A DNA stretch of 64,000 nt from Marsupella aquatica (taxonomy: Eukaryota > Plantae > Marchantiophyta): assembly GCA_973895155.1 (NCBI GenBank), contig OZ316894.1, forward strand, positions 16,174,699-16,238,698. The letters are read 5' to 3'. Below, in pieces: positions 13,945 to 43,600 of the stretch. The notes beneath the pieces are model-generated. The model ran no database searches, was not told where the DNA came from, and saw nothing but the letters and a program-made list of their open reading frames with translations. The position numbers and the translations under genes were made by a program. How positions within the stretch are numbered: position 1 is the stretch's first letter; each line of letters begins with the position of its first letter.

Positions 13945-16900
13945 ATTTTTAAAGGGGGAAAACCCACAAGAAACACCCCCAGGGATGAAAGCCACCCAGG
14001 GGAAGAGCACCAACAGGAGCAAACAAGAACACCCTAATCCAGCCATGGGTCAGGGGAAGCTAGGCTCCCTATGGAAGGGGTCCCCCTGATCCCGGCAAGT
14101 CATATGACTGCTATCCCTAAGCTGGCTATCACGGCTCTGGTACAGCAAGTAATTGCTCACCTGCAGGCTCCTAAAATTCCTATTATACTGGTTTTGCCAA
14201 TGTAGAGGGCAGGCCTTGTGTTGAAAATTTTTCCCAGTATCATTGTGGACCTCCTTGCAAGAAGGGGGGCAATGAGGTCGGGGAAGCATCAAGTTGCAAA
14301 CACCAATGTCATCCTTCTTCATCATTGTTCGTGTTAAGGGGGACCAAGATCTTGACCTTATCCCAGGGTTTGAGAGCAGTCTGCACCTTGTGAAACTCCT
14401 CACCCAACTGTCTGCTTTTCTTAGGTGATTGGCTGATGTCCAGCATATAATTAAGGTGGGTCTCCATTTGCCTGAGCACAACCCAGCCAGGGCAGTCTTC
14501 CAAGGAAATGAGAGTATGTAGCAGCGTTTAACTCTTTCCAAATACAATTGCACATCTCCATGAGCATAATCAAAGGGCTTGGCTTCCTCCTATGTCGCTG
14601 AATGGCATTGGTGATTGCTTCAAAAACAGAGCTGTTGGGGTTAGCAGGAGCCCCCTCGACCTCCACCTGTTGGTGACTCTACTACAACTGAAGAGAAGAT
14701 GCTCAGTGTGTTCAAAACAAGATTTGCACCTGGAGCAGATTCCATCGCAAACCTTCCAATGGCTGCCCCTACTGTTGGTGAAGAAGCACTGGTTGAGCAG
14801 CCGCCAAATGAAGAATCTCACCTTTGGTAAGGACCAACCTCCCCATAGTTTTTTCCATATTGAATGCCATCTCTCGGTGTTGCTCAATTGCACCCAACAC
14901 CTGTTCAGTTTTGTGACATCCCAGTCAACAAGCCTGTTGCACCTAGCCCACACCCGATTGGGGAACTTCCATCCCTTGTTCTTGTCTTCCCAGTTCCATT
15001 GCCACCCCTCACATTCCTTCAAATTGTGATCACCAAGGTCTGGGTTGCCTTGCATAATGTTATAGAAATGAGTGAATTCAGTGTTGTCCCTAGATTGGTT
15101 GCACTGGACTCTGTCTTTGAGGGAGTCTGATTCCAGCCAGCCATCCTGTGGTGTCCACAGGTCACCTATACTCCCGATGCCCTGATTAGTCATAAATCTC
15201 CTCAGGTTCACTCCTGCTTGTTTATCCATTTGGTGGTTCCTAGAGTACAGCCAAATGAGTCATGTGGGAAAGCTTACCCGTTCCAAAACCGTAATTAAAA
15301 TGTTGTCTCTTAGAGTATCACCCTTTGAGCAAGGCCCTCAGGGTAGGCGAGCCCTTGGTCATCAGCTCGTGGCTCGGCAGAATAGCTTCAGTCAAGGCCC
15401 AGCGTCTCCTCTCCTTTTTGCCAGGTTTGGACCTTAGTCCCTTTGTAATGATCTCCTGAGCAATCTGCACCCATTCACTCTTCCCACCAAGGATGAGCTT
15501 GGACACATGGTTCAACTTCAATGCTTGAGCTTGCTCAAAAATGGCAGGATCCCCAACCCTCCGACATATTTAGGAGCTGTGATGTCTCCAAGCAATCAGG
15601 GTTTTTATGTCCCTGAGTAGGCGTGCCAACCCCCCCCCCCCCCCTCCCCCCGGCCCCCCCCCCAAAAAAGGAACCATCGGCATATCTTTTCCAACTCCTT
15701 GTATCCAGACAGTTGCAGCTCAAGAAAAATCAGTCAATAAGTAGGAATGGCCCGCAAGACATGCCTCAGAATAATCACCCTGCTGGCCATAGTCAAGCAA
15801 AGCGGTGGGTCCAATGAAATGGCTTTTTCCCAAAATTTCCCAAGAAAAAAATTGGTTTCTTGCAAGGGGTAAATCTTATAGCCAATGGGGCAGCCAAGGT
15901 ACTCTGTGACCTCACCTTCTTGCGCAATCCGACGTCCATTGTGGGTACTTTGCTTCCTCAAAAAAAATAGGGATAATCTTTGACTTCTCCACATTAAGTT
16001 GAGCTCCAAAAAATAATATTTTCATACTTCTGGTTGTCTCCCTAGTGATTTGGAATTCATGTGGTGTCGCAGAGAGGAACATCCTAGTGTTATCAGCAAA
16101 AAGTTGATGGTGCAGACTATTGTCATTTGTAAGTTTTGCCCCAGACCAGCTCCCTTCCTCTAGTTTTGTTTATCAAACCCATCAAGGATTGTGTGGTGAG
16201 CACAACAAGACGGGGGAGTGTGGGCATCCCTGTCTAACTCCTCTAAGTAAGGGGATAGAGTCTGTGAACCGTCTGTTTATGTGGACCTTAGCATGCGGAT
16301 TTTCAACCAGGCCCCAAATTAGAGTGATTGCACAAATCGAGCACAGCCCAAAGAAAAGTGTGCTTGACCCAATCGTAAGCTTTGGTGAATCCAGTTTGAG
16401 GAAGGTGCGAGGTTGCTTGCTGACAGTGGCTATCTCCTGGCATAATTTAAAAGTTAGAATGTTGTCAAGAATGTCCCTTCCAGCCAGGAACCCGGTTTGC
16501 TGTTGGTCAACAACCACCCACTTCACCCGGTTGGCAATGAGATTAGCAATTAGTTTTCCAGAGAGTGTAAGCATTGTCAAGGGTCTCCAACTACTAAGCT
16601 CTCTAGGCCTCTTGATTCTTGGGGATCAATTTGACCACACCGGCCAAGGCCCTGATGGACAACCTCCACATCAGACAATCCAGAATTCTTGAATCATTTC
16701 AATGCATACTTTTGTCATAAAATTCCAGCCCTTGTGCAACACCTCAATAGTAACCTTGTCAATCCCTGGTCAGGAGCCTTATCAGTAGGGAGATCGAAGA
16801 CCATTTCCTCAATTTCCTTCTCATTAGGCACAGATGTGATAGCCTGGTTCTCCTCTTGAGACATCTTACTAGTAATAAGTAAAGGACATCCGCTTGCAGA

Positions 16901-18130: not shown

Positions 18131-19374
18131 CCGATTTGTCCATCAAACAATTGTGCATTTTGACTGCAATGACATGAATGAAGAATAGAAGAGCTCTATT
18201 GTGATAAAACTAGCATTTGGGGATCCCAGCAGAGGTCAAAGGTTTAGGTTTTTCCTATGAAGAATAGTATATACGTCCCCGGATTGAGTTATAAACCTTG
18301 ATGAGATGTTCATCAGTATTATCAGGAAATGGAGCAACTTGTGCCAGCAGTCTGCCATTTCCTGCCTAATAAATGCCTAAACAGTTGTGACAATGCAAGT
18401 CTAAAGCATGTGACATGCGCAAGGAGGATGCCTCGAGAACATCTTCTTAATTCCTTGGGGTTTTGAAGCACCCTAAAAGACATGCCTTGTGCATCCTAAT
18501 ATTCCTGACTTCGCTCTAGTTAACCTACCCTCACTAGCCAGTCATCAACAATGAAATTTTTTTTGGGCCTATAGGTGTGCTCATCTCCAGGGTCCAATGG
18601 GGAGCTCCTGGGAACGCGTCCATCTATTTAATAAAGCCTCATAGAAAATTAGGGATAAGGGCCTCTGGTCTGGAGTGAAGCCTCTACCGTGACTCTAGAG
18701 CACAACAATGGTTGAGGGTGGAACTGAAAATGGGCACGATGGTTCTGGCTAGTTACTCCTACTATCAACAATTTTGACAACCTAAGGCTACAGATTGCCC
18801 TTGTTTAAGCTAGTCACCCTAATGTGTAGGCCGCGAGTATGTTTCTTTGTATGCATATATGTTTGATAGGAGCCCCACCACATGCATTGTGCTGAAAGCA
18901 TGTATTCCAAAGGTTGCAGACAATTGGGATGTATGTAATAGTGTTGCGAGCTTATTACATAGCCCTACTCCCGACCCTATGTGCATCCTCTCAGAAATGC
19001 TAGTAGAGCTTAGTGTGCTAGAGACACAAACGTTGTGAATCATCAGTTTTTCCACGTCGTTCATTCACCTCGTCTCTTACCAGCCATTCAAAAAATGGGT
19101 TTCTAGTTCCAGGCTAGTTTGAGATTGCACGTAGAAACCGAGTCCCTCCCTATCCCACTACAGTTGCGTACTTTATGTTTCATTCAAATTTGGATACATT
19201 CACCTGTAAGTATCTGTAAACCTGTGAGTCCACGAAGACGTTGTTTTCTTCTTAGCTAAAGCAGGCAATCCAGAACTTAGATTACTTGGGTCGGTGATAG
19301 CCATTCAATACTGCAAATTCTAATTGGAGCAAAGTTAGAGCAAAGTTTCAGTAAAGAGACATCTCGGGACATTT

Positions 19375-20170
19375 ATGGACTCACCAGTCACTCGAATCAT
19401 TTATCCTAACTGTTTGCGTGTGCTATGCTGTCCAATTCCACTATTGCAGCTTTTGTGCTGTAATGATTCTTTTGGGCAGACTCGCCAGATTTTGAATCTC
19501 ACACCTGCTCCTCCTGGGAATTTGAAGGACTTTAAAATCCACTTACAAACCAGGCTTTCGGCAGTAAATAGAAGTAATGCGAAGGGTAATTTGCAGCACC
19601 TGAAGCCTGGCACGTCACTTCCTGTGGGAAGGCGCCTGCTCTTTCCTAGAACAGGACTTCGTTCTGTACCAGCCTATGGGTACCTTCTGTCGGTACGCAA
19701 CACAGCTCATTATTATTCAGTACAAGATATGCCAAAAGGCATAAAAACAAATTTCCCAGAAAACCCTTTTCAAGTCTGCTTTCGAAATAAATCAAAATGC
19801 AAGCTTCAAGGTAGCGGGACATGTGTACCATAACTCTTGCTAGCCATTAGGCTAGGAAAAAACAAAATGTTACACACTGGGCCCCTGAGATACTTCTTCT
19901 GAGAGTGGATCTGGAAGACTTGAAAAGCTCGAGTTCAAGCCTTCGAGCAGCAGGTATATCAGATCCTAAAAATGAGATTCATAACTTGCAAATCGAGCCG
20001 GACCGATTAAAGATGTTGCTTAGTGCGATTGAAGTCACAAGTCCCATGTCCCATTGAACAAAGCGCTGGACAGGGTCAATTTTACAGTAAGATATTGCTC
20101 GTGCAAATGAATTGATATGTGGAACTTGCCTCCTCACTTCCAGAGACCCTACCTCTCACGTATATGCCAA
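19375..20170 (+). pseudogene. Diverged, internally deleted duplicate of part of CFAP57 (source ~46105-47520)
   Basis: tcacttcctgtgggaag.cgcct.ctcttt (19614 vs 46627), aactcttgctagccat (19832 vs 47193) and gagcagcaggtatatcagatcctaaaa (19945 vs 47305) are collinear and include intron sequence. Confidence 0.88.
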
Positions 20171-20333: not shown

Positions 20334-21382
20334 TCAAGCAGCGGAAATGGCAATTCGCCCAGCAACCTGGTCCAAATCGCGTTGGCCATTCGAGGTGATT
20401 CTCCTTCCCCTAGTTGGACAGAGAAAAGAGAAACAACATCAGGTATAACGAAACTGGCACTCAAGCAAATTCTGCACATCGCCTGAGACCAAGTGATACT
20501 AGAAGGTTGGAGGAAGTGTTCAGCTTACCCCTTCACGTCCTTCTCAACGATGTCAATTCCCTCGAGCTGCTTCAACACATCTCTGGCGATGGAGCCACTG
20601 CTCTTCGCAAAATGGGAAGGCCTCACACCGTTGCTCTTGCGTCCACCGTAAACTTTACGGAAAGCGCCAACTCCAATCCCGCCCCTCAAGTAGATCTTCC
20701 TCGCCATAGAAGCTGAACCCACCGATCCATGCCAGACACTTAACGTAAGTCCCTTGAAACACAATATCAAAAGCCTTCAATGTTCTCCTGTTAGCACACC
20801 GGGAAAGCACCTTCCCCTGGGTCCACGGACGAGAGGAAATCGCAGGGAAGTAGAATCTTTTTCACCAAAAGCCGATCAAAGAACAGGAAGTCACCTGCTC
20901 TGATGTAATACCAACCAGCGTCATAGGGCGCAAGTTCCTTGAAGGTAGCAGTCTTCACAAGATCGGCCCAAGCTGGCACTTCGATCTGCAATATCGTTTC
21001 AAATTTCAGTCTACAGCACTGACCGCTCACCAGGAAAACCAAGCTCTCGGTATACAAGAGCAAGCATAACAGACCTCCAATAATAAGCAGTTCATCTTTC
21101 TAATGCCATAATCCTTCCCAATTCTTCCAGACAACCTCTGCATGCAAAGCATAGAGGAGACTCCTCCCTCCGTCCAATAGCATATTCCGAAGTGCAAAAT
21201 CAGAATGCAACCACATTCGAAACCCACAACAGACGGCACAAACAAATGTAAAGCAACGTTAGGACAAAAGGATGTTCACAATTTCGCACCTTGCCAGAGC
21301 GTTTCAGATGAGCAGCGTACGAGCGCACGAATTCGTGTGAAGGAACATCCTTCACGGTCTTGGCGGTCGCCGCCGTAGCCAT
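20334..21382 (-). CDS. RPS19: 40S ribosomal protein S19 (eS19), 4 exons (21382-21290, 20985-20895, 20712-20529, 20409-20334), 147 aa
   Basis: [96 protein letters not shown].../[19 protein letters not shown]; GT-AG introns with consistent phases. Confidence 0.97.
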
Positions 21383-23537
21383 TTTCTTCCACCACCTTGG
21401 ATTCGGTGCGATTCAGAGACCACGACGGCAAAATCTTGACAAAAACCTCGAGAGAATAACAAAGCCCTCCCAGAAAAATTCCGTGCGTCCGAATGGTAGG
21501 AAAATTGGTCACAGGGTGATTGGGAGGGAGCGAGTGTCTCTCCGTAACCCTACACGCCGTAACAAAAGCATGGTGGGAACGAACTGTAGACCGTCTCGTC
21601 TCTCACTACAGTCGACTATTCGCGAAGGAAAGAAACAGCCAACCCTAAAGTTCATGGGAAAATCATTACTCGCCTTGAAATATCCGTAACATTTGTTTAG
21701 TAAATAATTAGTGCCAGTGCTCCTGTTTTTAAAGGTTTGCTATTTAAGGATCAAGGGGATGGTGCACCCAATGTAATCTAAAGACCCTGGCGTCCAAAGA
21801 CCAAAAGGGAAGAGAAAACAAACCCCCAAGGACCCAAAGTAAACACCAACCTAAAGTTGCAGCGCAAAAAGTTGAACAAAGGGACCTGTAGTAAGAAGCC
21901 TTGGGCTAGGAATGGGTCAACCCAGAGAGAGCCATGTCATGGGTCCAGTAGCTAATCATCTACATATTAGCATTAAAGGTGTCTTTACGGTGGACCTGGT
22001 TTGCAACTACTATCTAGCCAAGAAAGCTAAAACATATCAGCTCAGGAAATTTATTGGATAGCCTAGAGATGAGCACCAAGCCAGCCCAAATGTAACACAA
22101 TAAAACATGTTTGCTATGGATGTTGAAATCTCATATTGCAGCCTGTTGAAGTCAAGCGCACCCTGGGCAATGCGCCTAGCCTGAGGTGTCGCAGCACGCC
22201 TGGATTGGAGCACCTCATGTGGACTGGTCTCGGGTAGCCCAGGTTGCTCATGGACCAGCCCACGCCTGAGTAATGGGCACAAGGGCGCCTGGGCACTAAG
22301 TTGGGCATAATTAACTAGAAGTCGGGAACTTGAGTCAATTCCTAACAACTTTAGTTCCGCTATGTGTGAAGGACCCACAATTGAAAGTTGAGAATTCTTG
22401 GATCTAAAGCATGGGACCCATTAGAGATCTTGTAGCCCTATTGGGCCTGTTACAAAGCTAGAGACAAGTTGTAAGAAAAAGGAGTCCCTTCAATTGGGAA
22501 GGTGCACAATAGTCTACTTGAGTGATTCATGGATGTGTAGTGCTAGATGCTCATGGGCACTAACAAGGGATCTCTCTTGTGTGGCTAGTACAAGGGGCAT
22601 TGAAATGATGTGCCTTTATGCCTCACTACTATGTGTCTTAAACACGATTTCGAACCGAACGAGAATTATTTCCTCTAAACGAGAAGTGTATTTTCATTTT
22701 CCGCCGAATCTCGCAAAATTGGCAGTTTTTTTCATCAAAAACACGTTTTTGGGGAAATAATGTAATTCGTATCGGAGTTTGGATTGAAACAGCAAATTTA
22801 ATAATGATCAAAACCAATGAAATTCATGCTAACAAACATTCATATTATCAAGGAACAATTAGATCCGAAAAACTTTCTCCTCAACCTCATATTCACGCTC
22901 TCCGAAGATATATGAAAGGTCTTATCTATAAATCCATATCCACGTTTCGAGCCAAGTGCGATAATTGTATCGGACTCCGGATTTGAGCCATGAAAGCTCC
23001 GACCCAATCTCAGTTTTCTCAGTTTTTGGATATTTACCAAAAATATTTTACATCACAGTCGATAAGAATTACTGCACGGTTCGTCAAACTTACCTTGCAG
23101 TTACCTCCGCAATTGACCAGTTACCTCCGCAAGTGACCATAGTCAACATGCCATTCTTTCAACAGCAATGCGCAGTCTGATAAAATTATCGCGAAAACTA
23201 CGGGCGACAAAAATACTAGTCGACAATACTAAGATCCTTTGGTTCATCGGTTAAATTTCAAAATTCCTATCCATATGAAGGAACCACTTTTGCAATACCA
23301 ACATCAGATAAATTTATCGCTTCAATTTCAAATTGCAACTTCCATATGAAGGAACCACTTTTGCAATACCAACATCAGATAAATTTATCGCTTCAATTTC
23401 AAAACTATATAATTTTGCCACGATGCACGTGTGAGAATGAAATTGGAAATCCAAGAAATATACCCTTTTCTGCTATTTTGTCGTTTAGGGTGACAGCCAA
23501 TCAAAAGTGGACATGTGGGCCAACCCCTCAACAGACA

Positions 23538-23547
23538 CTATAAAAGG
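23538..23547 (+). promoter_or_regulatory. Candidate TATA box of the transposase gene
   Basis: ctataaaagg about 120-150 bp upstream of the first in-frame ATGs. Confidence 0.4.
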
Positions 23548-23689
23548 GCCACCGCCGATAAGTTTTTGGCGTCATTATCGAGAGTAGATTTTTGCGAGTT
23601 GTGTTCTTGGAGCAACATTCTGTCCGTTGAGCCTTTCGTTTTCCCTGATTGCGGGAGGAATGCATAGCCCCATAGTGTCTCGGATAGCC

Positions 23690-26600
23690 ATGTCTCAATC
23701 AGACATAGATTCACCTTCCAGTTCAGTTGAATCCTCTCCTTCCAGTTCAGTTGAATCCTCTCCTAATCTTGTCGCTCGCTGTTTGCCAAGTCGCATACTT
23801 AAAGCTCTACCTCTCTCACAGCAAATAGTGCCCGAAATCTCTGACTCAGATTCTGATGCAAGTTCTGGTCCTGAGCCCAGTGCTTACTATGTGTCGCCTA
23901 GTAAACCTGAGAAGCGTCGTCTCTTGAGCATTCCATCGCTAAGAAATGAGAAACTTTCAATCCCAGGTTTAGGTCCGAGACGTCGCTTCAGGCCATCCAT
24001 CCTGGGTTATGGAGAGGGTATCCGGCGACCGATACGCGTATCGCAGTCGGCATTCAAGTCGCCACATTCAACACAAGTTCAACGACGGATCTTTCAGTCT
24101 CCGGCTGAGGATCGAGATACAAAAATACAAAGACCGATACGGCGATCGGTCTTTGCATTGCCTGGATTGGATGTGCGAGCAAGCGAGGGAATCGAACTGC
24201 AAAGTCCAGACTCGGCCCTTTCTTGAATGGTTCGTGGGAATCGTGGTGAACAAGTGCTCAATTTTCCAGCAGCTCGCGGAGTCGTTGGGACTGCACGTGC
24301 GAATCCAGAATCTCCAAGTTCTCAAGGGCGGACTGTCATTGGTTCCAGGCTCCAAGTATTGAGGAGAGGTCTTAGTGGTGTTCGGGTTATGTATAGAGAG
24401 CCACGGAGTCCAATTGTGTTTTCAGATGAGCCAAGTGCATCGGAGGACGAAGATGAGGAAGGAGATAGAGAATCCGATATAATAGCACAAGTTGTGTCTG
24501 AATGTTTAGAAGGAGCTGTCGAAGAGAATAGTTATAGTCGTCTATCCAGTGCCCCTCTAAATGCGTCAAGGAGATCTATAGAGGATGGTAGCTCAACAGA
24601 GAGTGATGCATCTATTCACGAGGCACCTGAAGGACCCAAAAATGCCAATGTTATGAACGGATTTCAGGCTGTAGAGAAGTCAAATGAGCCTAGTAAAAAA
24701 GATAGGGACCAAATTACTAGGAAAGACAATATGATAAATGACAAATTGAATAGAAACAAAATGAGAGAAATTCATAAGTATTCGTGTTGTGATAATTACT
24801 GTCTGAGGAATTTGGGTCTGCTAGCCATGACGAAACAATGCACTTATTACTATCGGCTATCCTACCCAGAGAAGAACGTCCTTCTAAGAGGATGTGTGAA
24901 GGGTGGGCATGCTGGTGCAAGTGGTTACTCAGTTAGCGGTAGATCCTTTTGTCGAAGTGGTTTTAAGAAATTATTTTCACTAGGAAATAATCATCTCCAA
25001 AAAATCTCGCAGAACATGTTTTCTCGGATACAAATCGGTACAGTTTGTCGAGAAAAATCACCCGCACATCTTGGTCTCGTCCAATGGCTGGATGATTTTT
25101 TTTCCACAAATGTCGAGAGTCTCCCCAACAAGGATATCTTTCATTTACTTGACAATTGGACAAAAACATAAGTTTTTGATGCCTTCCAGTCCGAAACTCT
25201 AATGCGCCAAGAACAAGGCATGACATATTCGTGGTTTTTTCGCATTTGGAACAAGGAGTTTCCTCGCGTGCGCATCCCCAAAAGGAGCCGTTTCTCCACC
25301 TGCGCCCCGTGTACTGAATTCAAAGCACTCCGTGACAAGGCAACACTCGAAGCAAAAAAGAGTAAGTTTCTAAACCTGTGTGTTACTCCCGATAATTTTA
25401 TCGGGTTGAGTATTCATGTGCTTCTTCTTTGGCCATGTGAGTGAATATATCGTTTGAACAGTTTGAATACTGAACCTGATAAATTTATCGTTGTCACAGT
25501 TTTTCATTACGGTCTTGTGTTTGAATACTAAACCCGATAAATTTATCGTTGTCAAGGTTTATCATTACGGTCTCGTGTTTGAATACTGAACCCGATAAAT
25601 TTATCGTTGTCAGGGTTCAACATTGCGGTTATCATGTTTTGTCCTAAACATTTTTATTATTGTATGAAAATTCTCAACATTGCTAAACGAGCATCAGAAG
25701 GCACAAGCAGTCGAGAGGGAGAAGTTAGCAAAGCACCGGAGCAAATGTTACAAGAGTCCGGAGAAATATTTGGGCATCTGTATTGATGGAATGGATCAAA
25801 AGAAGACAGAGTTACCTCATTTCATTCGGTGTCCGAAGAATATGGATGAAAAGTATTTCATCCTCGTACACGTAGTGGGTTGTTTGATCTTCAACAAACA
25901 ATTAAGTTCAAATGTTTTTTTGAACTATCCAAATATTCACAATGATAGCAACCTAACCATCCACGTTATCCAGCATATTCTGAATACCTGGGAAGGTCTG
26001 CTCCCTCCAGTGCTTTACCTCCAGCTTGATAACACAGCTCGAGAAAACAAGAATAAATATCTTATAGGATATTTGAATATGTTGGTGGAGATAGGTATTT
26101 TCCAGAAAATAAAGGTTGGTTTCCTATTGGTGGGGCACACCCATGATCAAATTGATCAAATGTTTAGCAAGTTTTCCCCAAAATTGAAAAAGCGGAAAGC
26201 TTTCCGGTTGGACACTCTTTCAGCAATCATAGAGGAATCCTACAATCATAGAGGAATCCTACAATCCTACGGCAAAGATATTTTTTGTCGACGAGGTTGC
26301 CAATTTCAAGAAATTTGTGTCAGACAAGGATCAAGCAAATGACAAGGATATGGATGGTCAGGTTCTACGTACTCTCCACGGCATAAGTGCTCAAAAACAA
26401 TTTCGGATTACTAGAGTACTCGAAGATGGAAGTGCTCGGTCCGTATTCCATGCCAAACATCTTTCAACGACAACCGATTGGGGGGAGACGGTGGATTTTG
26501 TTCGGTACATTCCATCATCTGGAATGTGGGTCGCACCACAAATGGCATTGAAGTCGGCCAGGGGAGCGACAGGAGACAATGAAGAGCAAGAGAATGATGT

Positions 26601-27246
26601 TGAGGAACAAGATGAGCGGGCGGCTCAAAGTTATTTGTCAACTCTTCAAAAATATCGAAGAGCAATTGAAGATGGATTCAATTACTTTGACGACGAAGAT
26701 TGTCTATGGTGGGGTCGTTTTTTTGACAAACAAAAAGAAGTGATTCAGCACCACCTGAAACTTGCACAATGGAGTTTTGATTGGAGTTGGCCCAAGGTAA
26801 ACGTAGAGAGAGAACTTCCGAGTAATCCTACGGAAGCAGCAATGGAACCTAGCTTGGTTGATAAAGTAGCGGGTGTGAGGACAGTCATGTATTCCGGAAG
26901 TCGAAGGAAAGTCACGGAAATTGGAGACTTCAAGGATCTAGAGGTGAATACTAAATTTGCAATGATATGTGTAGCAGCCCATCAGGATCCCAAGGGAAGG
27001 CCATTCTGGATGGCAAAAGTGACTGAGATTCTCACAAGAATTAACGACATCCCGGAGCGGATTAAAATCACTTGGTATGCAATGGATTCGGAGGTAGAGT
27101 CTGCAATTGAAGGCAGATATTATCCGGAGAAAGAGGCTTCGTCTAGCAAAGTACTGGAGGATGAATTGTCCCTAGCAGAAACTGCCGTTTATGCGTATAA
27201 CTTTGCGTTATTGGCAAATAGTACTCTCCCTATACAAACAAGATGA
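23690..27246 (+). pseudogene. Disrupted DDD/DDE-type transposase (DUF7869/Sola-like) with Ser-rich N-terminus and C-terminal SH3-barrel-like region
   Basis: CCDNYC, FCRSGFKKLFSLG, FSTCAPC, ICIDGMDQ, LYLQLDNTARENKN, FLLVGHTHDQIDQMFS. One frame broken by TGA (24224) and TAA (25169); intron from GT at 25362 with an apparently mutated acceptor near 25665; a 19-bp tandem duplication at ~26225-26262 causes a frameshift (removing it restores EESYNPTAKIFFVDEVANFKKFVSDKD). Confidence 0.82.
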
Positions 27247-27625
27247 ATCATTCAAAATGCAATGGAGACTGTAGTCGTTGATAGTCGAAGCTAGTTGCAG
27301 GTTTAAGTTATAATGGTTATCGTTCCCATGAATATGTACAGTGGTTATCGTTCTGGGACTATGTACTCCGCAGCTATAATGATATCTCTTTTTTTGAAAT
27401 AATTGCAATGACAAACCAGTTAGAGCATACAATGCTAAGTCCGATAAGATTATCGACAACTCCATTCCCCCAACTAGAACACCGCGATAGTCCGATATAT
27501 GCAAAGTCCGGTAAATTTATCGCATTAGTAAAGGTGACAAAGGTTCTTCCTCATGGAATACAGAATCCGATAAATTTATCGACAACTCCATTGGTGATTG
27601 ACATTATCCTAACGAGCACACGCAA

Positions 27626-30600
27626 CTAATCTAATAACATGTCATTGAGATCATCCTCATTTGGTGTTCTGGGAGGCTCTTCCTTAGTTTCTTCTTGTTC
27701 CTCTTCGGTCTCCTTCACGACCTCAACTACGTAAGTCGATGTCCCGAGAACACCCAATTGGCCTGCAATTGGTGGTTGAATCTCATGACCTTCAACGTCG
27801 TGCCCTTCAATCTGGGATTCTTCATATAAATTCCACTTTGACTCCAGAATCATGATTCAGGATTTCACAAAATCAATCTGTGCAGAACTCTTATCAACAG
27901 CACAACCCTGGCGAGATTTGAGGAGAGTAGCAGCTAATATCGATCTGGTTCCACAACAAAGATCAATAACCCAATCCTCTTTCTCAGAGAAATGGGAAAC
28001 AAACCAAACCCCCAAACCAACAGGCTTCTGATACGGGTTCACAACAAATCCCAACGGATCAACGGACTTCTTGGTTACACATGGAACCTTGATGATATTG
28101 ACGCGAGACTCATCCGGTTGGAAATTGTACATGTCTATGTTCCGAATGCCTTCCTCGCTATAGAAACCTATCGACCAGTTCTCAAAACCCCACACCAATC
28201 GAGCTCCAGCTGGACGCTCATGAATGTTAGTCTTCTCCCAGATTCCAGATTCCAGCCTCGACCCCACAGTTGCATACACTCTCCAGTGCAGACATCACCA
28301 TATACGTTTGTTGTAGTGAATGCATCACAACAAACCTCCACTGCTTAGCGGTCGTCATCTTTGAGAAACTTGTCAACATGTCTAAAATGTCCTTTTCTGT
28401 GAAGGCCACTTCATCAAACTCCGAACCAGGAGCATTAAAACCATACGGAATATCCGCAACCGCAAGGATGTAAGTCCTTGGCTGAACAAAATAATCCAAA
28501 ATTTGAACATCACCAACATGAAGATAGTAGGGAAAAGAATCCCCGTCTGCATTTTTCCATGTTTGTTCAAACGCTTCTGCTGTGCCCTCGCCTAAGGACC
28601 TCAGCCGATTGTACTTATCGATTGCAGCAAGCACAAAATTCTTAAACACATAAGAGATTTCAGCTGAGGGAACAATCACCTCCCCCGCAGAATTATAAGT
28701 GACAGCCGGAATCACTTTGCTTTTCCTTTTTGAATTAATCTTCAGCTGTAAAAATCTCAGACACATCTACAGTTAGAATAGCGTGAGATGAATGCTAAAG
28801 CCGATAAAAATCTCGCGATGGAGCACGCTAGCTGATAGATGCAATCGCTTAGAAACCAACAAAGGAATAAAGCTGATAAAAATCTCGCGATGGAGCACGC
28901 TAGCTGATAGATGCAATCGCTTAGAAACCAACAAAGGAATGCTAAAGCCGATAAAAATCTCGCGATAGAGCATGCTGTGACAGGAATGCTTACCGCATCA
29001 CTCAATTTCTCCGCCCATATGCCAAGGACCGAGACATTTGTTTCATTGGGAAACATTTCTCTGCATGTTGCCCAATCTGGCTGACCACATATCTGCAAAA
29101 ATAGTTTCTTCACCTTGGCAAGCTTTTTCAACTTCTCACCTTCCTTGTGCATTTGATCCAAAGTGATCACCTTCCCGATAACCCTATTCAAGAGACGCTT
29201 GACATGCTCCTTATTTGACAGTCCTTGGAGACCTCAAAATGAATTTAAGTTGAGGTCACCAGCAAGTTTATTCATTTTAATCTCCCTTACCGTCAAAGGT
29301 TTTACCTTTCCCTTTGCGTTCGTCGTTGCCACAATTTTTTTGGGTTGTCCTAAGACAATACCTTTCTCCCACATCTGGAAAATCTGCTCCTGAATATCCC
29401 AAATTTCACCTGTTCGGAAAGCAATTTGGAAAGCCGGATCATGTTTGGCCATGGAGTCACGAACTCCTGGCGTGTACTCCATCATGCATTCTTGACAACA
29501 TGCTTCGCGGACATCTTTAGTCAAGCCCACACCCATTTCAAGGAAAATATTGTGACAAGCGCAAACTTGGTCAATTTTAGTCATGTTCTTTCGATACTCC
29601 TGGTCATAGTTATACTGGAAGCCTAACTTTCGGACCTCGGATCTCGTAAGCCCAGCGTAAACCCAAGCTTCCAGCTCACCATATATTTGCTTCCCGTACA
29701 TTTTAAACAACTCGGACTTTGCCCGAGCACCATGATTCCCTCCAATAATTCTATACTTCCATACCCTTGACTGCAGGATGTCCCAATCTGCGGTTGTGGG
29801 ACAATCCTTCGGATCCACACACAGCACGAATGGGGCACTGAAGTTGGTGGGGTTTTTCATGAGAAGTATCTTGATATTTTCCACATGCAATCTATCCACT
29901 GGTCTAATCAAAGTTGACAAATCCCCCTCCTCATCAAATATGAGATTGTCGACATGCAGAAGCACAGTTGTCCTTTGCACCCTTTGTTGCATCAAAAGAC
30001 TGAGCTCTGCCTTGATCGCGTCCATCTCATACATCGAAAGAGCCGTCTCCTCCTCCTGATCAGCCTACAAAAGCGTTGCAAATTCAATTAAGGAAAGAAA
30101 CTACGAGATTTTTATCGGAGTTCGTATTTGTTCAACATAACTCCACAATCCGCAATTCAGGAAATAAACAGCGAGATTTTTATCGGATTTCGTATTTGTT
30201 AAACAGTACAACGACGTAGTACTTACCAATGGCGCCGTAGGAACCGCGATTGGAATTGATGGAATTGACGGAGCTCTATCTACTTCTGCAACCACCGTCT
30301 CAGTCCAGCCAGTCCTCTTCCTCTTTGTGCTAAGTCCAGAACCAGATGGCCCGGATCCCTCGGATCCTTTACTTTCGCTTGGTTTAACGGATGGTCCTCG
30401 ACGGTTGCCCCGGCCTCTCCCACTACCGCCAGTTTCCTGGCTCCTCATCCCACGGTCAGAGGTTCCCGTGGCATCTCCCCTGCCGCTACCTCTCCCTTTC
30501 CCTCTTCCACTTCCCAAAACCCGACCAGAAGTTGTAGGTTCGTCCACGTCAATACGTGTAGAGGATTGCAATGGTTCTTTTCGCCCCAACATTTTATCGG

Positions 30601-31195
30601 CATTAGAACCACCGCTGCCACTTGAACCTGGTTTCTTGAAAACAATTTTGCGGACAAGTTTGAACTCTTCACCCACAAGTCTCTTGTACTCTGCATTCAC
30701 CCTTGGAAGCATGATGGCATCACAATCTTGCACATACTGGCCGATCCAAGCCAAACCCATAACATTCATCTCTCTTGCTGCCCGAACTTCGGCAACAAGG
30801 GGATCTTATGGATAACTGTCCATCGATTTCTCATCAAAGTTATCGAGAGTAACAATGAGAGATGTGAAACCCTTGCGCCCACACATTGTCAAGAAACTAA
30901 GGCCCTCTATCAACACTTTTTCCTCCCCGTGGCCAACCATGAACTCGACGATGGCAACAACAATGACAGGGCCATACGAAACATTAACCTTCGCCGATTT
31001 TTGCAACTGGACCCAAAGGATTGGGGTAGCACAATCTTCGAAACCCGTGGACTGTAATCTGGCGTCACGGAAGTACCATGACTTCTTGATACACTTGACC
31101 TCTTCACAAATGTCTTCACTCATCCAAATTGCATTGGTGAGGCTTGTCATGAGACTTTCTGCCTCAGCAGATCCACTCTTTCCACTAGCAGCCAT
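27626..31195 (-). pseudogene. Transposon cargo gene: N-terminal domain, Gly/Ser/Arg-rich linker, ParB/Srx-like domain, beta-class N6A/N4C DNA methyltransferase domain, acidic tail
   Basis: Spliced frame (introns ~30225-30066 and ~28992-28749). ParB-like IRPVDRLHVENIK...YRIIGGNHGARA. MTase motifs in beta order: LAVADIPYG (catalytic motif IV-like), GIWEKTN, NPYQKPVGL, WVIDLCCGTRS (SAM-binding FxGxG-like). Lesions: in-frame stops at 30806, 29234 and 27857, and a 7-bp ctggaat duplication near 28240-28255. Confidence 0.8.
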
Positions 31196-31393
31196 GGCAA
31201 AGTCTGCAAATAAACAAATTCCAATGCAAAGAGCGATAAAATTATCGCCGCCAATCTCACAGCACATGTGGACACGACATCTCATCACACAAGGACAAAG
31301 AGACCCGCAATGCAAATGACCGATAAAATTATCGCAAAAGTGAGCCTTCTTTAAATTGACGGCCGAGTGTACAGGTCGAAGAATCAGCTACGG

Positions 31394-31436
31394 AACCCTA
31401 AATCCAAAACCTTAACCCCTAAACCTAAACCCTAAT
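31394..31436. repeat. Short degenerate telomere-like (AAACCCT)n / telo-box cluster
   Basis: aaccctaaatccaaaaccttaacccctaaacctaaaccctaa. Confidence 0.7.
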
Positions 31437-32145
31437 CATAGTTGAACCTCGCCAGAGCGAAGCATTCGATCCGCTTCTTGGGCCATTGGGGAATATGAGT
31501 GACGCGATGATCATAAGCCCACAGCCAATGGAAATCAACTTCACCAGTCTCAGGATTCACTACTACTACTGAATGTCGGCGTGACGAAATGTCACAACAA
31601 GCATTTGTGCAGCATGGACAGATCTCACCATTGGCAAGGACGTTCGTCCACAGGCAACTTACATAGATCAAGTTAAAGAGCGCACAGACCGGCTGGGGGG
31701 GGAGTTGACGAATCTTGTATGAATATAGTTTCCCACCAGTGTCAATAAAAAACTCGGTGGCAAGAGGATTGTCCAGCTTGTCAATCACATCCTGAATCTC
31801 ATTGAATGCTCTACGTCTGTTGTCGGCATAGAATTCTGGCTCATAAGCAGGATTGCCCTTCACAACATGACAGTAGTGGAGTATAAAACGTCTTATTGCA
31901 CCGGTTTTCAGAAAGAGTAGGATAACTCTTCTAGAAAATCCAACATATCTATCCCACCGAATATAAATTTCTCCCCCTACCTGATCTACGTAGAAGTGAA
32001 ATGCGTTATGGTAAAACGGTTTTACTACCAGCCTGCATATCTTTAAAATTAGTGACTCATCCAGCCTCCTTAGCTGGTCCAGCATGGCTCCATTCCCCCA
32101 TTCTGGAGGATCCAAGTAGGGTACAAAAATGCGTCGCTCGAGCAT
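31432..32145 (-). CDS. Transposon-borne hypothetical protein, 237 aa, with a C-terminal Cys/His cluster
   Basis: Uninterrupted ORF with globular, protein-like composition and EICPCCTNACCDISSRRH; ttcag acceptor just upstream of the ATG. Confidence 0.6.
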   Translation of the reverse strand: MLERRIFVPYLDPPEWGNGAMLDQLRRLDESLILKICRLVVKPFYHNAFHFYVDQVGGEIYIRWDRYVGFSRRVILLFLKTGAIRRFILHYCHVVKGNPAYEPEFYADNRRRAFNEIQDVIDKLDNPLATEFFIDTGGKLYSYKIRQLPPQPVCALFNLIYVSCLWTNVLANGEICPCCTNACCDISSRRHSVVVVNPETGEVDFHWLWAYDHRVTHIPQWPKKRIECFALARFNYD

Positions 32146-32513
32146 GGCCTGATCACTGAATAGAAATCAGGAATAAATTTTGGAGAACATACTAATTACA
32201 ATTCTACAAGTTTCATCCAACTTTACAGTACCTTGTATAACGGGCTGTGAAGCCAATGCACTTGTCAGCTAATCGTCCGAAGAGGCGCAAACAAATACAC
32301 TCTGGACCACACAACCCGAAGTCAAGGGAGGCAGAGTCAATTACATTCAAAGTGTTTCTTTACAAGCTCTTCTCGAGCAAACCTTAGAGCACCCAAAATT
32401 GACTAGAGGAATGAGGAGTGCGATAAATTTATCGGATGTTCGCAGCAATGCCTCATCCACTCAGACTCGTCCATGCCATGCAAGAATTGTCCGCTTCCCG
32501 CTTTCTCCAAGAT

Positions 32514-32991
32514 TTATCCAAACTCTACAAACTGATCTAACTGCTCATACAAAAAGCACCCAAGCATATCTATGGGAGGGAGGAAATGAGTTTCCTCTCG
32601 GAAGACCCTAGCAATATGTATGTTTGAGAGAAGGTCGGCATTAGGAATGCTTGCGAGCATTTTGTTTATGTCATTGATCTCACGGACTGCATATTTCAAT
32701 AGCGCCCAAAATCGTGTACCAACAACAAGATGGTTCCATTTCTTTGAGGTGGCTCCAAGACAAATGATTGTTCTCATTCGAGTCAGTCGTTCTTCTGGTA
32801 GAAGTTTTAGGTCAAGGCCAAGGTGTTCATCTTGTGTGCAAGACAAGGCTAAAAGGGGCCAAATGTGAGATTCAACGAGTTGATCGGGAAGTCCATTCAA
32901 CACCGGGCACTTTTCCTCGAATATATTTCCTACGCTCGTGGGCTAAAACGGATCCCATCTTTGCAACGATTAGATTCTCCGACGCAGCCAT
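32514..32991 (-). pseudogene. Transposon-borne F-box-like protein, probably frameshifted near the N-terminus
   Basis: PVLNGLPDQLVESHIWPLL...IICLGATSKKWNHLV...FWALL resembles the plant F-box signature LPxxL...I...L..VSKxW..LV. The ATG at 32991 is in a different frame. Confidence 0.55.
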
Positions 32992-34499
32992 GAAGTAGAG
33001 CTACCAAAACCACCAATAAAAATACCTTCAATCACCAGGTGTAACCGAACACATCCATAGTACCAACCCTGCATGACAGTTTAACGATTAGGACTCGTGA
33101 CGTATTATATTCGCTGCACAAGGGTAGGACTTGTTTATTTAAATATGTCCTTACAAGACGCGCCTCAATGCAAAGGTCGAAACACTCATCGTGAAAGGTT
33201 CACCCAAGGGTCTTCGTTCCAAATCTTACAACAGAAGTGAGCCTGTTTGTGGTACTTGTTGTCAAGACGACGACAATAATAGTTACAAGAAAACTCCAAA
33301 GAATGTAAACATGCCGTTAACATCAACCTCGAACAAATTGGAACTCTTGCATCATTCATTCAGCAGAATTCAATGCGGAGAGGATTTTGCCTATCTCCAG
33401 GATCAGTACCACCCATCCACAATGCTCCTATACTGATGGGGAGAACTTTGAGCCGCACGAGTCTCTTGTACAACCGGCGTGCACGTTTGACATGATTTTC
33501 AAGGAAGACAGCCATTTGTCACAATACCTGTTGTCCACGGAGTGCAATCGACCTTCCATTGTGCCTCCTAAACCCGGCAACACTGCGACATCAGAGATGA
33601 AGATGAGTCTCCAAACAAAACAAAGGAAAATGATTCTCACAGGAGGATGCGATAAGTTTATCGCACTCCGCATTCGAATTGAAAATATGACTTCCTCAGA
33701 CACCTAAGCCCTGAATTCAATCTTTCACAAAAATGACAACTCCGATAAATTTATCGGATTCTCAATTACTCCTCTTTCCATGAAAGGAATGAAGACTCCA
33801 ATAAATTTATCGGAATGAAGGCAACACCTCTCTAAACACTGGATCAAATGATTGCAACAGAGGAATGTAGAATGCAATAAATTTATCGCAGTCCGCTCGG
33901 ATCTGGACATTTTACACTAAATGACTAGTTAGTCTTACATGGAGAACTTGAACAGGAATGGTTGTTCCGATAAATTTATCGGGTTTTCGGTAGAAAGAGT
34001 CAAATCGCTTGGGAGGAATGTAAGACTCGATGGGAGTTTGGTATTCGCTCTCAGTCAGGAGATATTTGCTCTGGCGAAAGCAAACGTTTTATGGGCAGCC
34101 CGCTCCTCTTTATATAGGAGACGCTCTAAACCATGGTTAATTTCCCCTTAACCATGGTTAAGTTTCCCCTTTACCTGGGTTAGTGCGTGGTCGTTCCTGG
34201 ATTACGCGGTTCGGACCAAGTTACTCGCAGTTCGGACTTTTTCACTGATGGAATGTAAAACCCGATGCACGTATCGCTCCCTGCATTCCCGCGGCGATGC
34301 AATGGAGGAAAGTGGCGTTTCGGAGAGTTTTTGCCAGTTTTATCGGTCATTGCATTGCCTTAGAAAAAAAACGGGATCGGGCTAAACGAGAACTCCGACA
34401 CACTTCTCGGTCGGTCCGAAATCGTGTTCTTAGTATATTGCTAGTAGTCATGCACAACAACACAACAATCTTTTTTGCCTTGAAACATCCAATTGAAAT

Positions 34500-40469: not shown

Positions 40470-40677
40470 GCACAATGTGTTCGGTGCGGCAGAGGAGGAT
40501 TGATTTCACGATGAGCTTGAGGGGATGGGATTGTATGATGCAGCGATGCAAAGTCGCCTCATGTTCAAGAACAACAATGGGCCTGTGATTGAGCGTGTGA
40601 TGAAAGAGCTGGTGCAAATGCACAAGAGATCTGCTGCAGGTGCCAATAACTCAAGTGGTCCTGGGGTGGCGGGATAA
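40470..40677 (+). pseudogene. NBR1-like C-terminal UBA-domain remnant forming a 50-aa uORF (40525-40677) that ends 2 nt before the CFAP57 ATG
   Basis: HNVFGAAEED*FHDELEGMGLYDAAMQSRLMFKNNNGPVIERVMKELVQM resembles the plant NBR1 UBA2 pattern (AEWDPxLEELxEMGFxD...LLxKNNGSIKRVVMDL), recalled from memory. Confidence 0.55.
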
Positions 40678-40679
40678 AG

Positions 40680-43600
40680 ATGGCGACAATTGCGCAATCC
40701 CTGCTTCCAAATCACGTCTTCGGGATCCAGTCCGTGCTCCGTGATGGCTTGCATTTTGTGGATGACACCACTGTGGTTTACACTGCGGGGCACACCGTGG
40801 TGTGGTGGACTATGGACCAAAAGAATCAGAAAGTTGGCGTGGGATCTATGGATACCGAGGCCATTACAGCAATTACTGTGAGCCACAACAGAAAATTTGT
40901 GGCCGTGGCGGAGAGTCAAATGCCGGAGCGTCCCGTGATTCTGGAGCCGAAGAAAGAAGTAAGCGAGCTCTCAAAAGCCGTCGATGCAGCCAAAGCAGCC
41001 CCAGTGCTGGAGATCAAGGGGCCCGTGATCACACTGTTCGATTCGCAGACAGCCAAGAAGAAGAAAGTCCTAATGGGCGGGGAAGTCGGATCACGGTCAT
41101 ATGTTTCCCTCGCCTTCACCGCCGACAATAGGAGCCTGGCAGCTCAAGGAGGGCCTCCGGAGTGGAATTTGATGCTCTGGAGTCTGGATAAATCGAAGTT
41201 GATTTCATCGATCAAAGTCTCCACAGAGCGCGAGGTTTTCCAGGTATGAATAGTGGATTCTTTACATACTCCTAAGCTGGTCCTAATGCGGTCGTCCAAG
41301 CAAGCTTGCAAAGATTTTGCTCTCCTCTAGTTTGCCACTATTGCTGCGGTCGGTGGTTGTTAGCGTCTCAGTCTCAACGGCGACGAATGCGTGAGACATT
41401 TTCTTCCTTTGTCATTCTTGCCTTAATCATAAGCTAGTTGGTATCTAAGAAATCAGAATTTGTCATCGGCATTGCTTTTTTGGGAACACAGAAGTAAATA
41501 GTTATCCTAATGTTGAAAGTTGTCAATATCAATGGTGGCCGCTGAATTCCTCTCTTATGGACACTTAGGTATGGGCCTCTCTGGCAACGACCTCCTTGCA
41601 ACGAAGTCTCTAGCAATTTGAATGAAATCCTTAAGGCTTTAGATGCAATTTCCAGACATATTAGCAAAGAGAGTCCGTCTGGCCTGTCACCGGTGACCGG
41701 ACAAGCAGTAGCAGAATCCCAACCTCTCCCAGAGATGTTTCATTATTAAAAGCCTCGTCTGTTGTGGAGCGTCCTGAAAACTGCTGTGTATTCTCATTCA
41801 AGAAAGGTTCCGTTTTCTTTCGTTTGTAGCCAAGTAGGGAAATCTTGGTACGTTAAAAACGTGGCAGCAGTTTTTTTCTGAACACGTGGTAAGAGAGTCG
41901 ATAAACATTGGTATGAGTCTTCTTGTTTCCACTAGTTTGGAGACATGCTGAATAAGTGCTTAAGCTGGTGGCGAAGGCTGCACCTTCTAGGTCAGAGTAT
42001 CGAATGCGTACACACAGGCTCGTGTGTCCACCTCGCACCGTCCTCCAACACCCCCGTCCTAACAACAATCCCATCGGGCATCAGAATTTTTTAGAGAAAA
42101 GACGAATGCAAAGAAGAGCGCGATCGAGAGTCGTGTGAGATGAGTTAAAATTAAAATGTAGAGATGTCCACGCAGCTGGACATCTTGCATTGAATAGGCA
42201 AAACTGAAATTGCATATCCGATCTTCTAATGTCACGAGAATGGATGGTCTCATTCGTCCGTTTTGGATGGTTGTAATTCAGCAAGTTGTTTTTTTCACGT
42301 CACTTTGCGTGATGAATCATCCCGTGCTTGTCTCTTGCAAGACCAAAACATAGCTCGTGGATGCAGGTCCAGTGCTGCCTCGGTGATGTCACCGTTATCA
42401 CATGTATTGGAGATGGATTTTTTAAGACTTTCAGAGCGACTGATTCATTGCTGAGGCAAATCTCCACAGACATTGGAAAACGTGAAGGGCAGAAAGTGCT
42501 CCACCATTTATGGTTAGCTGGTGAAGGAGGCGAGAAGGGTTCCACTGATAAGGAGAAAGAGAAGGACCGAGTAGACAAAGAGAGGGAAAGTGCCTGTCTA
42601 TATGCAATGGAAGACGGAGAACTTTTGTACACCGAAGGTGGGGTGGTATGTTCTCTTTGTTGATGCAATGGTTCCTGGTAGTGCTTGTTTTGTTGAAGCT
42701 TTTCGTTGTGCTGATTGTGGAATATCGTAAGGAAAGCCGACGTGTGGTCTTATGTTGCCTCCACCTCTCGAGGAAAACGGCATGCAGGTACCGCCAAAGA
42801 GTCATCCCGAACAGTAGAATGAGTGACCTGTCTACTATTACAGACACTCAAACTCTGAGTACATTTCTGTTAACATCCATGCTAATTGCATAGTAGTTTT
42901 ACTTGCTCGCTTGCACTGGCAACAATTGAAGGGATGTTTGAGGTCACGCTGACTATGATCTGATGAATAGAATGAATCTGCAGATTGTTGGAACAGTGTG
43001 TCCTTTCGGTGGTCTACCTGGAGCAGGGGTTGTTGAACTCATGGTACAGTTCTCGAAAGGATTTATAGCAGCAGAAAGGGGAGGCAGCTTAGCTATTTAT
43101 GAGAAGATTGATGAAGAGAACTTTAAAAGAATACGGTCTTTCAAAGTAGACATGAGTGGTGCAAGGATGGTCAGTTTCAGCTTGTCTCCGAGCGAGGACC
43201 TGATTATTGGCGTTCTGGAAAGCAGGCAGATTCTTGTAATACCGTTCCAAAATTCAGAATTCTACAAACCAGATGAAGTTCCCAAAGAAATAACTGTGCA
43301 TGTGAGTACATCGTATTTCATATGAATGCTTTCTGACCTTAATTACCAACCGCCAGCTGATATGTTTACCTCTGAAATCGTTGTTTGCAATGTATCAAAA
43401 GCTGATTGCTTTTAAATGTTGAAGTGTACTAACTTCAAACCGTAGCGAAGATCTGTCCAGTAAAGCGCATCTCCACGGCTTTTCTAACGCAAGAATTTTG
43501 GAAATGCAGGGCTACCACTCTGGAAATATCACAGGTTTAGATGTCTGTGTTAGGAAACCGTTGGCTGTAACATCCAGCTCGGATAAAAGTGTGCGTGTAT

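Follow-up and report, generated by a model that had tools for sequence, protein, structure and literature searches.

We describe a DNA transposon with terminal inverted repeats (TIRs) in the liverwort Marsupella aquatica, probably of the Sola1 group, that almost certainly carries as cargo a gene combining a ParB-type fold with a beta-class amino-methyltransferase (MTase) fold. The element lies within a window of 64,000 nucleotides (the whole stretch of DNA analysed here: contig OZ316894.1 of assembly GCA_973895155.1, forward-strand positions 16,174,699 to 16,238,698) and is studded with 14-bp palindromes of its own. Judged by its sequence, the window copy of this ParB-MTase gene is a pseudogene of a multi-copy family; since it is dead, any function belongs to sister copies only. 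For intact sisters, we see a roughly even chance that the encoded protein of ~1050 aa would bind the palindromes of its own element through the ParB half and methylate adenine there or nearby through the MTase half. The coordinates of all features are collected in Table 1.

The ParB-MTase gene runs on the minus strand from 31195 to 27626 and comprises three exons, ~1050 codons in sum, separated by two phase-0 GT..AG introns. An intron-containing gene had been proposed for 27626..31195 in the initial annotation, which was made from the sequence without database searches; this interval covers the gene, and the full unit is the transposon at 22641-34428. The position and phase of intron 2 are identical in L001-L005, five of the eight related loci (L001-L008) that formed our comparison set for gene linkage and palindromes. 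Exon 1 is 31-33% identical to its counterparts in L001 and L003, and the N-terminal domain that it encodes (window 30630-31195; L001 390-960; L003 643-1180) found no match in the Pfam scan. The window copy bears five lesions: the three stops (30808, 29236 and 27859) and the duplicated 7-mer (28253-28240) that the initial annotation had listed, and, in addition, an exchange of the motif-I Gly for Arg at 27946. To compare sister copies, we aligned to 27830-29300 the publicly available contigs of four runs, which carry two organism labels and belong to two studies. At the 29236 stop and the motif-I Arg, other letters make up most or all of the depth in all four runs; the 7-bp duplication is missing from the contigs of run X1 and, in a wider contig alignment, from part of the depth in three runs; and in that wider alignment the 27859 stop is replaced in three runs. 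High-depth sister contigs are free of four of the five lesions, the exon-1 stop lying outside the displayed rows, and both L001 and L003 are open across the position of that stop. Among 24 tabulated private differences of the window copy, 15 are of the C-to-T type and six fall at CG, where the rate is roughly threefold that at CHH; this spectrum of few events would be consistent with decay under host 5-methylcytosine (5mC). Deep repeat contigs cover the element from end to end in all four runs, and the contig depth in run X1 (29 in the flank versus about 850-930 in element contigs) only suggests tens of element copies.

Exon 3 encodes a beta-class amino-MTase. On the minus strand, motif IV (DIPY, 28454-28443) stands ahead of NPYQKP (28039-28022) and of motif I, which binds S-adenosylmethionine (SAM; VIDLCCGTRS, 27970-27941), the motif order of the beta class, with every motif at the place given in the initial annotation. 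With hardly an exception, close relatives keep D[IV]PY, NPYQK and a motif I of the type DLC[CSA]GTG, and 20 sequences with 49-70% identity to the window copy show next to no variation in motifs IV, X and I; DPPY occurs among the members only in P0083 and P0101. Because the window MTase pieces score 16 and 14.3 bits against PF01555, under the Pfam cut-off of 26.7, the domain assignment rests on homologues and folds. Two homologues, P0046 and P0016, reach 65.7 and 39.9 bits, respectively, and 19 of 24 hits carry a precomputed PF01555 label. A profile of 13 relatives placed M1.HpyAVI (E 1e-10), CcrM, MboIIA and RsrI ahead of N4CMT (2e-4) and PvuII (0.17), and the structural model of P0016, a single open reading frame (ORF) of 789 aa, resembles CcrM, M.BceJIV and M1.HpyAVI with E-values of 1e-11 to 1e-9 (CcrM, E 1.6e-11; M1.HpyAVI, target template-modelling (TM) score 0.77-0.80). 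The profile and structure checks that had been proposed for both domains thus gave the fold matches and not the Pfam ones, the window pieces lying below the PF01555 cut-off and matching no ParB family in the Pfam scan. From the conserved motifs, intact copies are likely to encode an active amino-MTase. The best sequence and fold matches of this half are enzymes that methylate adenine at N6 (N6A), as expected from the earlier remark that DIPY is nearer the N6A type, a remark which left the substrate uncalled, as we do; on the sequence evidence we lean towards N6-methyladenine (6mA) over N4-methylcytosine (4mC) as the mark. The loop that follows a WxKxN motif has its aligned counterpart in CcrM and M1.HpyAVI, a loop which we take to contact DNA.

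In its predicted structure, the N-terminal core of exon 2 has the ParB/Srx fold, as had been read from the IIGGNHGARA core, located here at 29749-29720 on the minus strand. An AlphaFold2 (AF2) model of the window exon-2 ORF (mean predicted local distance difference test, pLDDT, 88) has Myxococcus xanthus ParB as its best fold match (7bnk; Z 11.3, root-mean-square deviation (rmsd) 2.0 Å over 95 residues). The top seven rows of this comparison are ParB, Noc and PadC structures (Z 10.7-11.3), with Srx lower (Z 8.2), and an unbiased search of 48,161 chains is led by PadC, KorB and pNOB8 ParB (Z 10.6). Foldseek returned nothing at E<=0.001 with the ParB model, the best 16 among the matches listed all being ParB/Srx-fold entries. 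The likeness is visible in folds only: none of 36 aligned family members matches any ParB family in Pfam, and a sequence profile of the family run against structures matched no ParB structure. The CTPase clamp of canonical ParB proteins has an arginine-rich GxxRxxA box. At this box the family consensus is GG[NGT]H[SGT], with Arg in 16% and 14% of members at the next two columns of the conservation table. Separately, the look-alike clusters of window 29237-30064 include fungal DUF3723 proteins (score 0.95); these are presumably Starship accessory genes, which suggests that DUF3723 is ParB-like and another cargo of mobile elements.

When 1.84 billion proteins were searched by phmmer, the intact exon-2 ORF had 114 relatives at E<=0.001, and 12 of these match the window MTase exon as well (E<1e-8). 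Both domains lie within one uninterrupted ORF in P0016, and likewise in P0072, which derives from a transcriptome. A word-based search for longer proteins, with exon 2 as the query, yielded none among 1754 candidates, and none of 54 pattern matches on viral contigs was a relative. Organism names, looked up for 30 of about 140 proteins, include Chara braunii, Riccia sorocarpa, Adiantum nelumboides, Ginkgo and a Clastostelium transcriptome, as well as the animals Ptychodera, Saccoglossus, Branchiostoma, Diadema and Haliotis. The closest pair of loci, L004 and L005, differ by a nonsynonymous divergence (dN) of 0.066 and a synonymous divergence (dS) of 0.87; in nearly all other locus pairs dS is saturated and the proportion of nonsynonymous differences (pN) is 0.14-0.37. 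On these sequence comparisons, the coding sequence of close relatives is under purifying selection. The MTase tree gave long-branch warnings on all distant members, and only the close clade was used. One cluster, P0045, spans four abalone species and consists of a 543-548-aa protein that has the ParB-like domain but lacks the MTase, and that gave a weak hit to Tudor; it is possibly a domesticated copy.

The gene lies between the TIRs of the element, linked to a DUF7869 transposase, so that the transposon vehicle suspected at the outset is in place. Assignment to Sola1 is probable: the 4-bp target-site duplication (TSD), CTTA, ends in A (one insertion only), the termini are AAC...GTT within a TIR, and a ParB plus N4/N6 MTase gene stands opposite the transposase, as in elements of the Sola1-1_Ec32 type; for the family of the transposase itself, the evidence is the DUF7869 hit alone. 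The two genes are convergent, tail to tail, in the window, and a convergent transposase 3' end was found in four of the eight related loci (L002, L004, L006 and, through a weak match of 21 residues, L001). As for the others, L003 and L005 end too early, L007 has none within about 570 bp and L008 gave a weak distant hit. The C-terminal part of the transposase is 54-55% identical in L002, L004 and L006, and the DUF7869 part 79% identical in L006. At the C-terminus (26920-27246, plus strand), in the window and in the same three loci, we also observed a conserved domain, FWxAKV...IKITWY, without a Pfam hit, which we assume to resemble a chromatin reader of the Tudor/BAH type.

The palindromes are a property of the element. 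Clusters of them stand upstream of genes, within introns and in the stretch that separates the two convergent genes (for example 23178-23390, 25390-25606, 27442-27581, 31234-31334 and 33650-33981). A pattern drawn from the window repeats has 23 distinct sites, all within the element, against 0.04 matches expected, and the more general CGA[TG]N6[AC]TCG has 19 matches in the element against 0.54 expected (shuffle maximum 2) and none in the 52 kb of window beyond it. Tandem arrays are rich in them: the palindrome is held by seven of 19 arrays with a period of at least 15, and by seven of nine with a period of at least 45. Pattern-free k-mer counting found that the top repeat differs between families, being CGATCCAAACATCG in L001, CGATAC..GTCTCG in L002 and L006, and CGAGAC..GTCTCG in L003-L005. 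CGA and TCG are invariant across the sites of all families, giving each site two CG dinucleotides. Across L001-L006, 50 of 51 pattern matches fall outside the coding intervals (set by hand, about 70% of bases); of the distant loci, L007 has one match and L008 none. In the MTase tree, the loci with an AC..GT core, L002-L005, stand in one clade (99/98) and have a common loop after the WxKxN motif, NINxLPSGNR; in L001 and in the window, core and loop are both different.

How might gene and palindromes be related? The parS site and the operators of KorB have an inverted-repeat geometry that suits a dimer of the ParB type. Because the sites here are 6+2+6 inverted repeats of that same geometry, we infer that the ParB-fold half of an intact protein would bind the inverted half-sites as a dimer, and from the pattern of repeats we put it slightly above an even chance that the ParB-MTase targets these palindromes. 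The fused MTase would then add 6mA on these palindromes or in their vicinity. Protein and mark, placed at promoters and introns, would regulate the expression of the element, most likely by counteracting host 5mC silencing at the site CGs, as VANC does for VANDAL; the likely effect is that the element is kept expressed, since the sites cluster upstream of all three of its genes and in introns, each with two CGs. On our analysis, anti-silencing and self-repression are about evenly balanced as the outcome. A fuller version, in which a land-plant Sola1 element would run a parS/ParB-type system whose nucleotide-gated ParB-fold dimer loads at family-specific palindromes of 14-16 bp, spreads along the element and writes 6mA or 4mC through the fused MTase, we regard as tentative and rather unlikely. 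If it were true, each family would be shielded from host 5mC silencing by a private, rapidly re-coded epigenetic mark, and the gene family would have moved between streptophytes, algae, amoebae and animals of the sea.

Several observations weigh against self-targeting by an active ParB-MTase. Motif IV departs from the canonical [DNS]PP[YFW] tetrapeptide, being D[IV]PY and not DPPY; the catalytic motifs are eroded in animal and amoebozoan relatives (DVPN in P0089, DTPT in P0072); and the MTase fold was taken from the homologue P0016, which is 27% identical to the window MTase. The canonical arginine box of ParB is missing from the family, and the helical region superposes only loosely on KorB and Caulobacter ParB (rmsd 6.7 Å over 155-157 residues), so that both the action as a sliding clamp and the direct recognition of sites are conjectural. 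The pattern CGA[TG]N6[AC]TCG was composed after the sequences had been seen, and the co-variation of site and protein rests on three lineages, too few to demonstrate co-evolution, in which kin share labels. A complete lesion-free copy was not among the assembled loci, L003, L004 and L005 each having a lesion. Lastly, the degenerate site at 34396 overlaps the right TIR and two of the 19 pattern matches lie within the first exon of the transposase, sites which would fit binding by the transposase equally well.

This last point leads to the main rival explanation, in which the transposase, or else the third cargo protein, binds the palindromes and the ParB-MTase is an unrelated active accessory enzyme with a short target elsewhere. 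In addition to the site in the right TIR, CGA/TCG half-sites are present at both termini, the transposase too diverges in step with the element, and transposases can, in accounts accessible to us, be sequence-specific activators of their cognate copies. However, most sites are kilobases from the ends, seven flank the ParB-MTase gene or sit within its introns and upstream region, and their geometry suits a ParB-type dimer; one preprint describes arrays of like kind next to the ParB accessory gene of a transposon superfamily unrelated to this one (bioRxiv 10.1101/2025.02.11.637652). We consider this rival clearly less probable than targeting by the ParB-MTase, though a serious candidate. Somewhat further down we place a self-targeting protein that writes 4mC at the site CG, or that represses, in a KorB-like self-limitation. 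With CGA and TCG invariant, the methylated base could equally well be C or A; the MTase domain has, in the accessible literature, switched between 6mA and 4mC repeatedly, viral enzymes labelled N4C are among the fold matches, and KorB, a repressor, is a top fold match. Against this variant, which we hold to be unlikely, motif IV begins with D, not S, in all close relatives, and N6A enzymes come first in both sequence and fold searches.

It is quite improbable, in our view, that the MTase domain is inactive or directed at RNA and the protein a DNA-binding or protein scaffold only: non-canonical DIPY and the eroded motifs of distant members would fit such a loss, as would accessible reports that eukaryotic N6A-MTases shifted to RNA repeatedly and that DIRS1 elements carry inactive MTases, but motifs IV, X and I are nearly invariant in the 20 sequences despite saturated dS. 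Finally, the five lesions and the sub-threshold Pfam scores of the window copy might have pointed to an artefact of joined decayed fragments, or to bacterial contamination. This is already refuted, as a single ORF spans both domains in P0016 and in transcriptome-derived P0072, the position and phase of intron 2 are common to L001-L005, and the flanks hold intron-rich plant genes.

Beyond these two genes, the element contains a third cargo gene with an intact Cys-rich ORF of 244 aa (31435-32166) that has two homologues at 65% and belongs to no family in the Pfam or Atlas comparison. A weak F-box-like hit lies at 32517-32942 (E 0.045). The frames at about 33050-33560 on the minus strand are broken and may be a 5' exon of this gene or a fourth gene, and telomere-like repeats of the TTTAGGG type occupy 31405-31431, between the third cargo gene and the ParB-MTase promoter. 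The flanking host genes are intron-rich and include an auxin-canalisation gene (PF05703; 7103-9089, minus strand), RPS19 (a fragment at 20794-21099) and a WD40-repeat gene with exons at 40650-47330 (region to 47510), of which a decayed copy, 75-85% similar, is found at about 19090-20150; by the distribution of PF05703, this set of genes marks the host as a land plant. The window further holds a decayed long interspersed nuclear element (RVT_1, zf-RVT; 14573-16625, minus strand) and an 83-bp tandem array at 54923-55667 (nine copies, 93% matches), with decayed copies at 56700-57450 and an adjoining 337-aa coiled-coil-like ORF at 53951-54964.

Table 1. Positions, in the window, of the transposon, its genes and the predicted parts of the ParB-MTase
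Feature	Position	Strand	Remarks
DNA transposon with TIRs, 11.8 kb, probably Sola1	22641..34428		inverted repeat pair; flanks ctta/AACACG ... CGTGTT/ctta
Left TSD, CTTA	22637..22640	+	
Left TIR	22641..22672	+	32 bp, starts AACAC; 27/32 match the right one
Right TIR	34397..34428	-	overlaps degenerate palindrome copy at 34396
Right TSD, CTTA	34429..34432	+	
14-bp palindrome family CGATAAATTTATCG	22959..34409		27 copies (<=1 mismatch); 27/28 window matches inside the element
Transposase gene, broken	23691..27246	+	stops; 19-bp tandem duplication 26224-26266; start codon is our reading
DUF7869 domain of transposase	about 25836-26252	+	PF25273, E 9.5e-47; DGMDQKK / QLDNTARENKN / GHTHDQID
ParB-MTase exon 1	30227..31195	-	~190-aa conserved N-terminal domain, then Gly/Ser/Arg-rich linker; stop at 30808
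Intron 1	30065..30226	-	2 palindrome copies (30104, 30172)
Exon 2	28994..30064	-	ParB/Srx-fold domain and helical region; stop at 29236
ParB/Srx-fold domain (predicted)	29585..29974	-	exon-2 ORF residues 31-160; conserved R, GGxH, N; without canonical GxxR arginine
Helical region at the place of the ParB helix-turn-helix	29357..29584	-	AF2 helices; candidate DNA-binding part
Intron 2	28746..28993	-	72-bp tandem repeat with 3 palindrome copies (28802, 28874, 28949)
Exon 3	27626..28745	-	beta-class amino-MTase and acidic tail; 7-bp duplication, Gly>Arg, stop at 27859
Catalytic motif IV variant DIPY	28443..28454	-	D[IV]PY in 19/19 close relatives covering the position, window included
Motif X region (NPYQKP) and SAM-binding motif I (VIDLCCGT)	27941..28039	-	motif reading and alignment of relatives
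Third cargo gene	31432..32930	-	upstream of, and in the same direction as, the ParB-MTase gene; 5' limit estimated

Since Sola1-1_Ec32 of the brown alga Ectocarpus has already been published, with a gene of 1104 aa for a ParB-like plus N4/N6 MTase protein opposite the transposase (Dinatale et al. 2025, PMC12477816), the architecture described here is a known one and not a new kind, and a ParB-MTase fusion as transposon cargo is less surprising than the initial annotation held. In the accessible text of that paper, the authors propose that the ParB-MTase modifies its own element. Both are giant elements with a 4-bp TSD ending in A and termini that begin with AAC (AACAC...GTGTT here, AACCG...CGGTT there); the Ectocarpus element measures 21.5 kb with a TIR of 282 bp, whereas ours, in a land plant, measures 11.8 kb with a TIR of 32 bp. 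The accessible account of Sola1-1_Ec32 names no target motif, and the likeness to the Ectocarpus protein is one of described architecture. What the present analysis would add is land-plant members in which each related family has its own palindrome as predicted target site; in the literature searched, with Repbase Reports outside its scope, no report was found of land-plant ParB-MTase elements or their operators.

A second algal genome paper of 2025 describes, in its accessible part, Plavaka elements of Bostrychia with the accessory genes PAG2 and PAG3 and tandem inverted repeats proposed as ParB sites (bioRxiv 10.1101/2025.02.11.637652). There, too, a transposon carries PF01555 MTase and ParB-like domains as cargo, but on separate proteins (MTase with SET; ParB with a 2-oxoglutarate (2OG) oxygenase), in the EnSpm/Plavaka superfamily, and with the arrays reported beside PAG3, not element-wide as here. 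To the self-binding and self-modifying ParB/MTase accessory proteins that these two papers, in their accessible parts, proposed, the window family adds conserved catalytic motifs under purifying selection and several sister elements with their own predicted operators, with which swap experiments can therefore test self-targeting directly. Should the proposal hold, 6mA/4mC in land-plant DNA could be traced to a defined enzyme and a defined site, and the family could supply sequence-specific DNA methyltransferases whose recognition sites are long.

Phage fusions of ParB_N with N6_N4_Mtase have the same domain order, and viral models align over both domains; among the matches listed, identity to phage MTases is 24-29%, for the MTase part alone. 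Unlike phage and ParB systems, the gene described here is spliced and eukaryotic and lacks the GxxR arginine, and no ParA or terminase was found among the element ORFs scanned by profile, a set in which short or broken frames were not all included. The comparison that the initial annotation had drawn with MpDN4MT1 of Marchantia and N4CMT of bdelloid rotifers extends to the presence of a prokaryotic-type beta-class amino-MTase in a eukaryote and no further: according to the accessible descriptions, these are host genes with an SPPY-type motif IV (TSPPY in MpDN4MT1), N4CMT having a chromodomain as well, in contrast to the D[IV]PY transposon cargo of the window family, and the word ParB is absent from the accessible text of both papers. 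A chlorophyte ParB-HTH (helix-turn-helix) Dam family was rejected as a counterpart, since its description assigns it to group 2 and keeps it separate from group 1, the permuted one (Iyer 2016).

The closest tested parallel is VANDAL/VANC, where, in the accessible text, anti-silencing by an element-encoded protein with family-specific motifs has been demonstrated (Hosaka et al. 2017, PMC5735166). In both systems an element protein goes together with family-specific non-coding motifs spread by tandem duplication. VANC belongs to the MuDR superfamily, is not described there as a ParB or MTase protein, and has as its motif a 9-mer in one orientation, not a palindrome; its activity is established experimentally, whereas the liverwort system is known from sequence. 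If our proposal is true, the ParB-MTase elements would constitute a second self-targeting system of transposons beside VANC.

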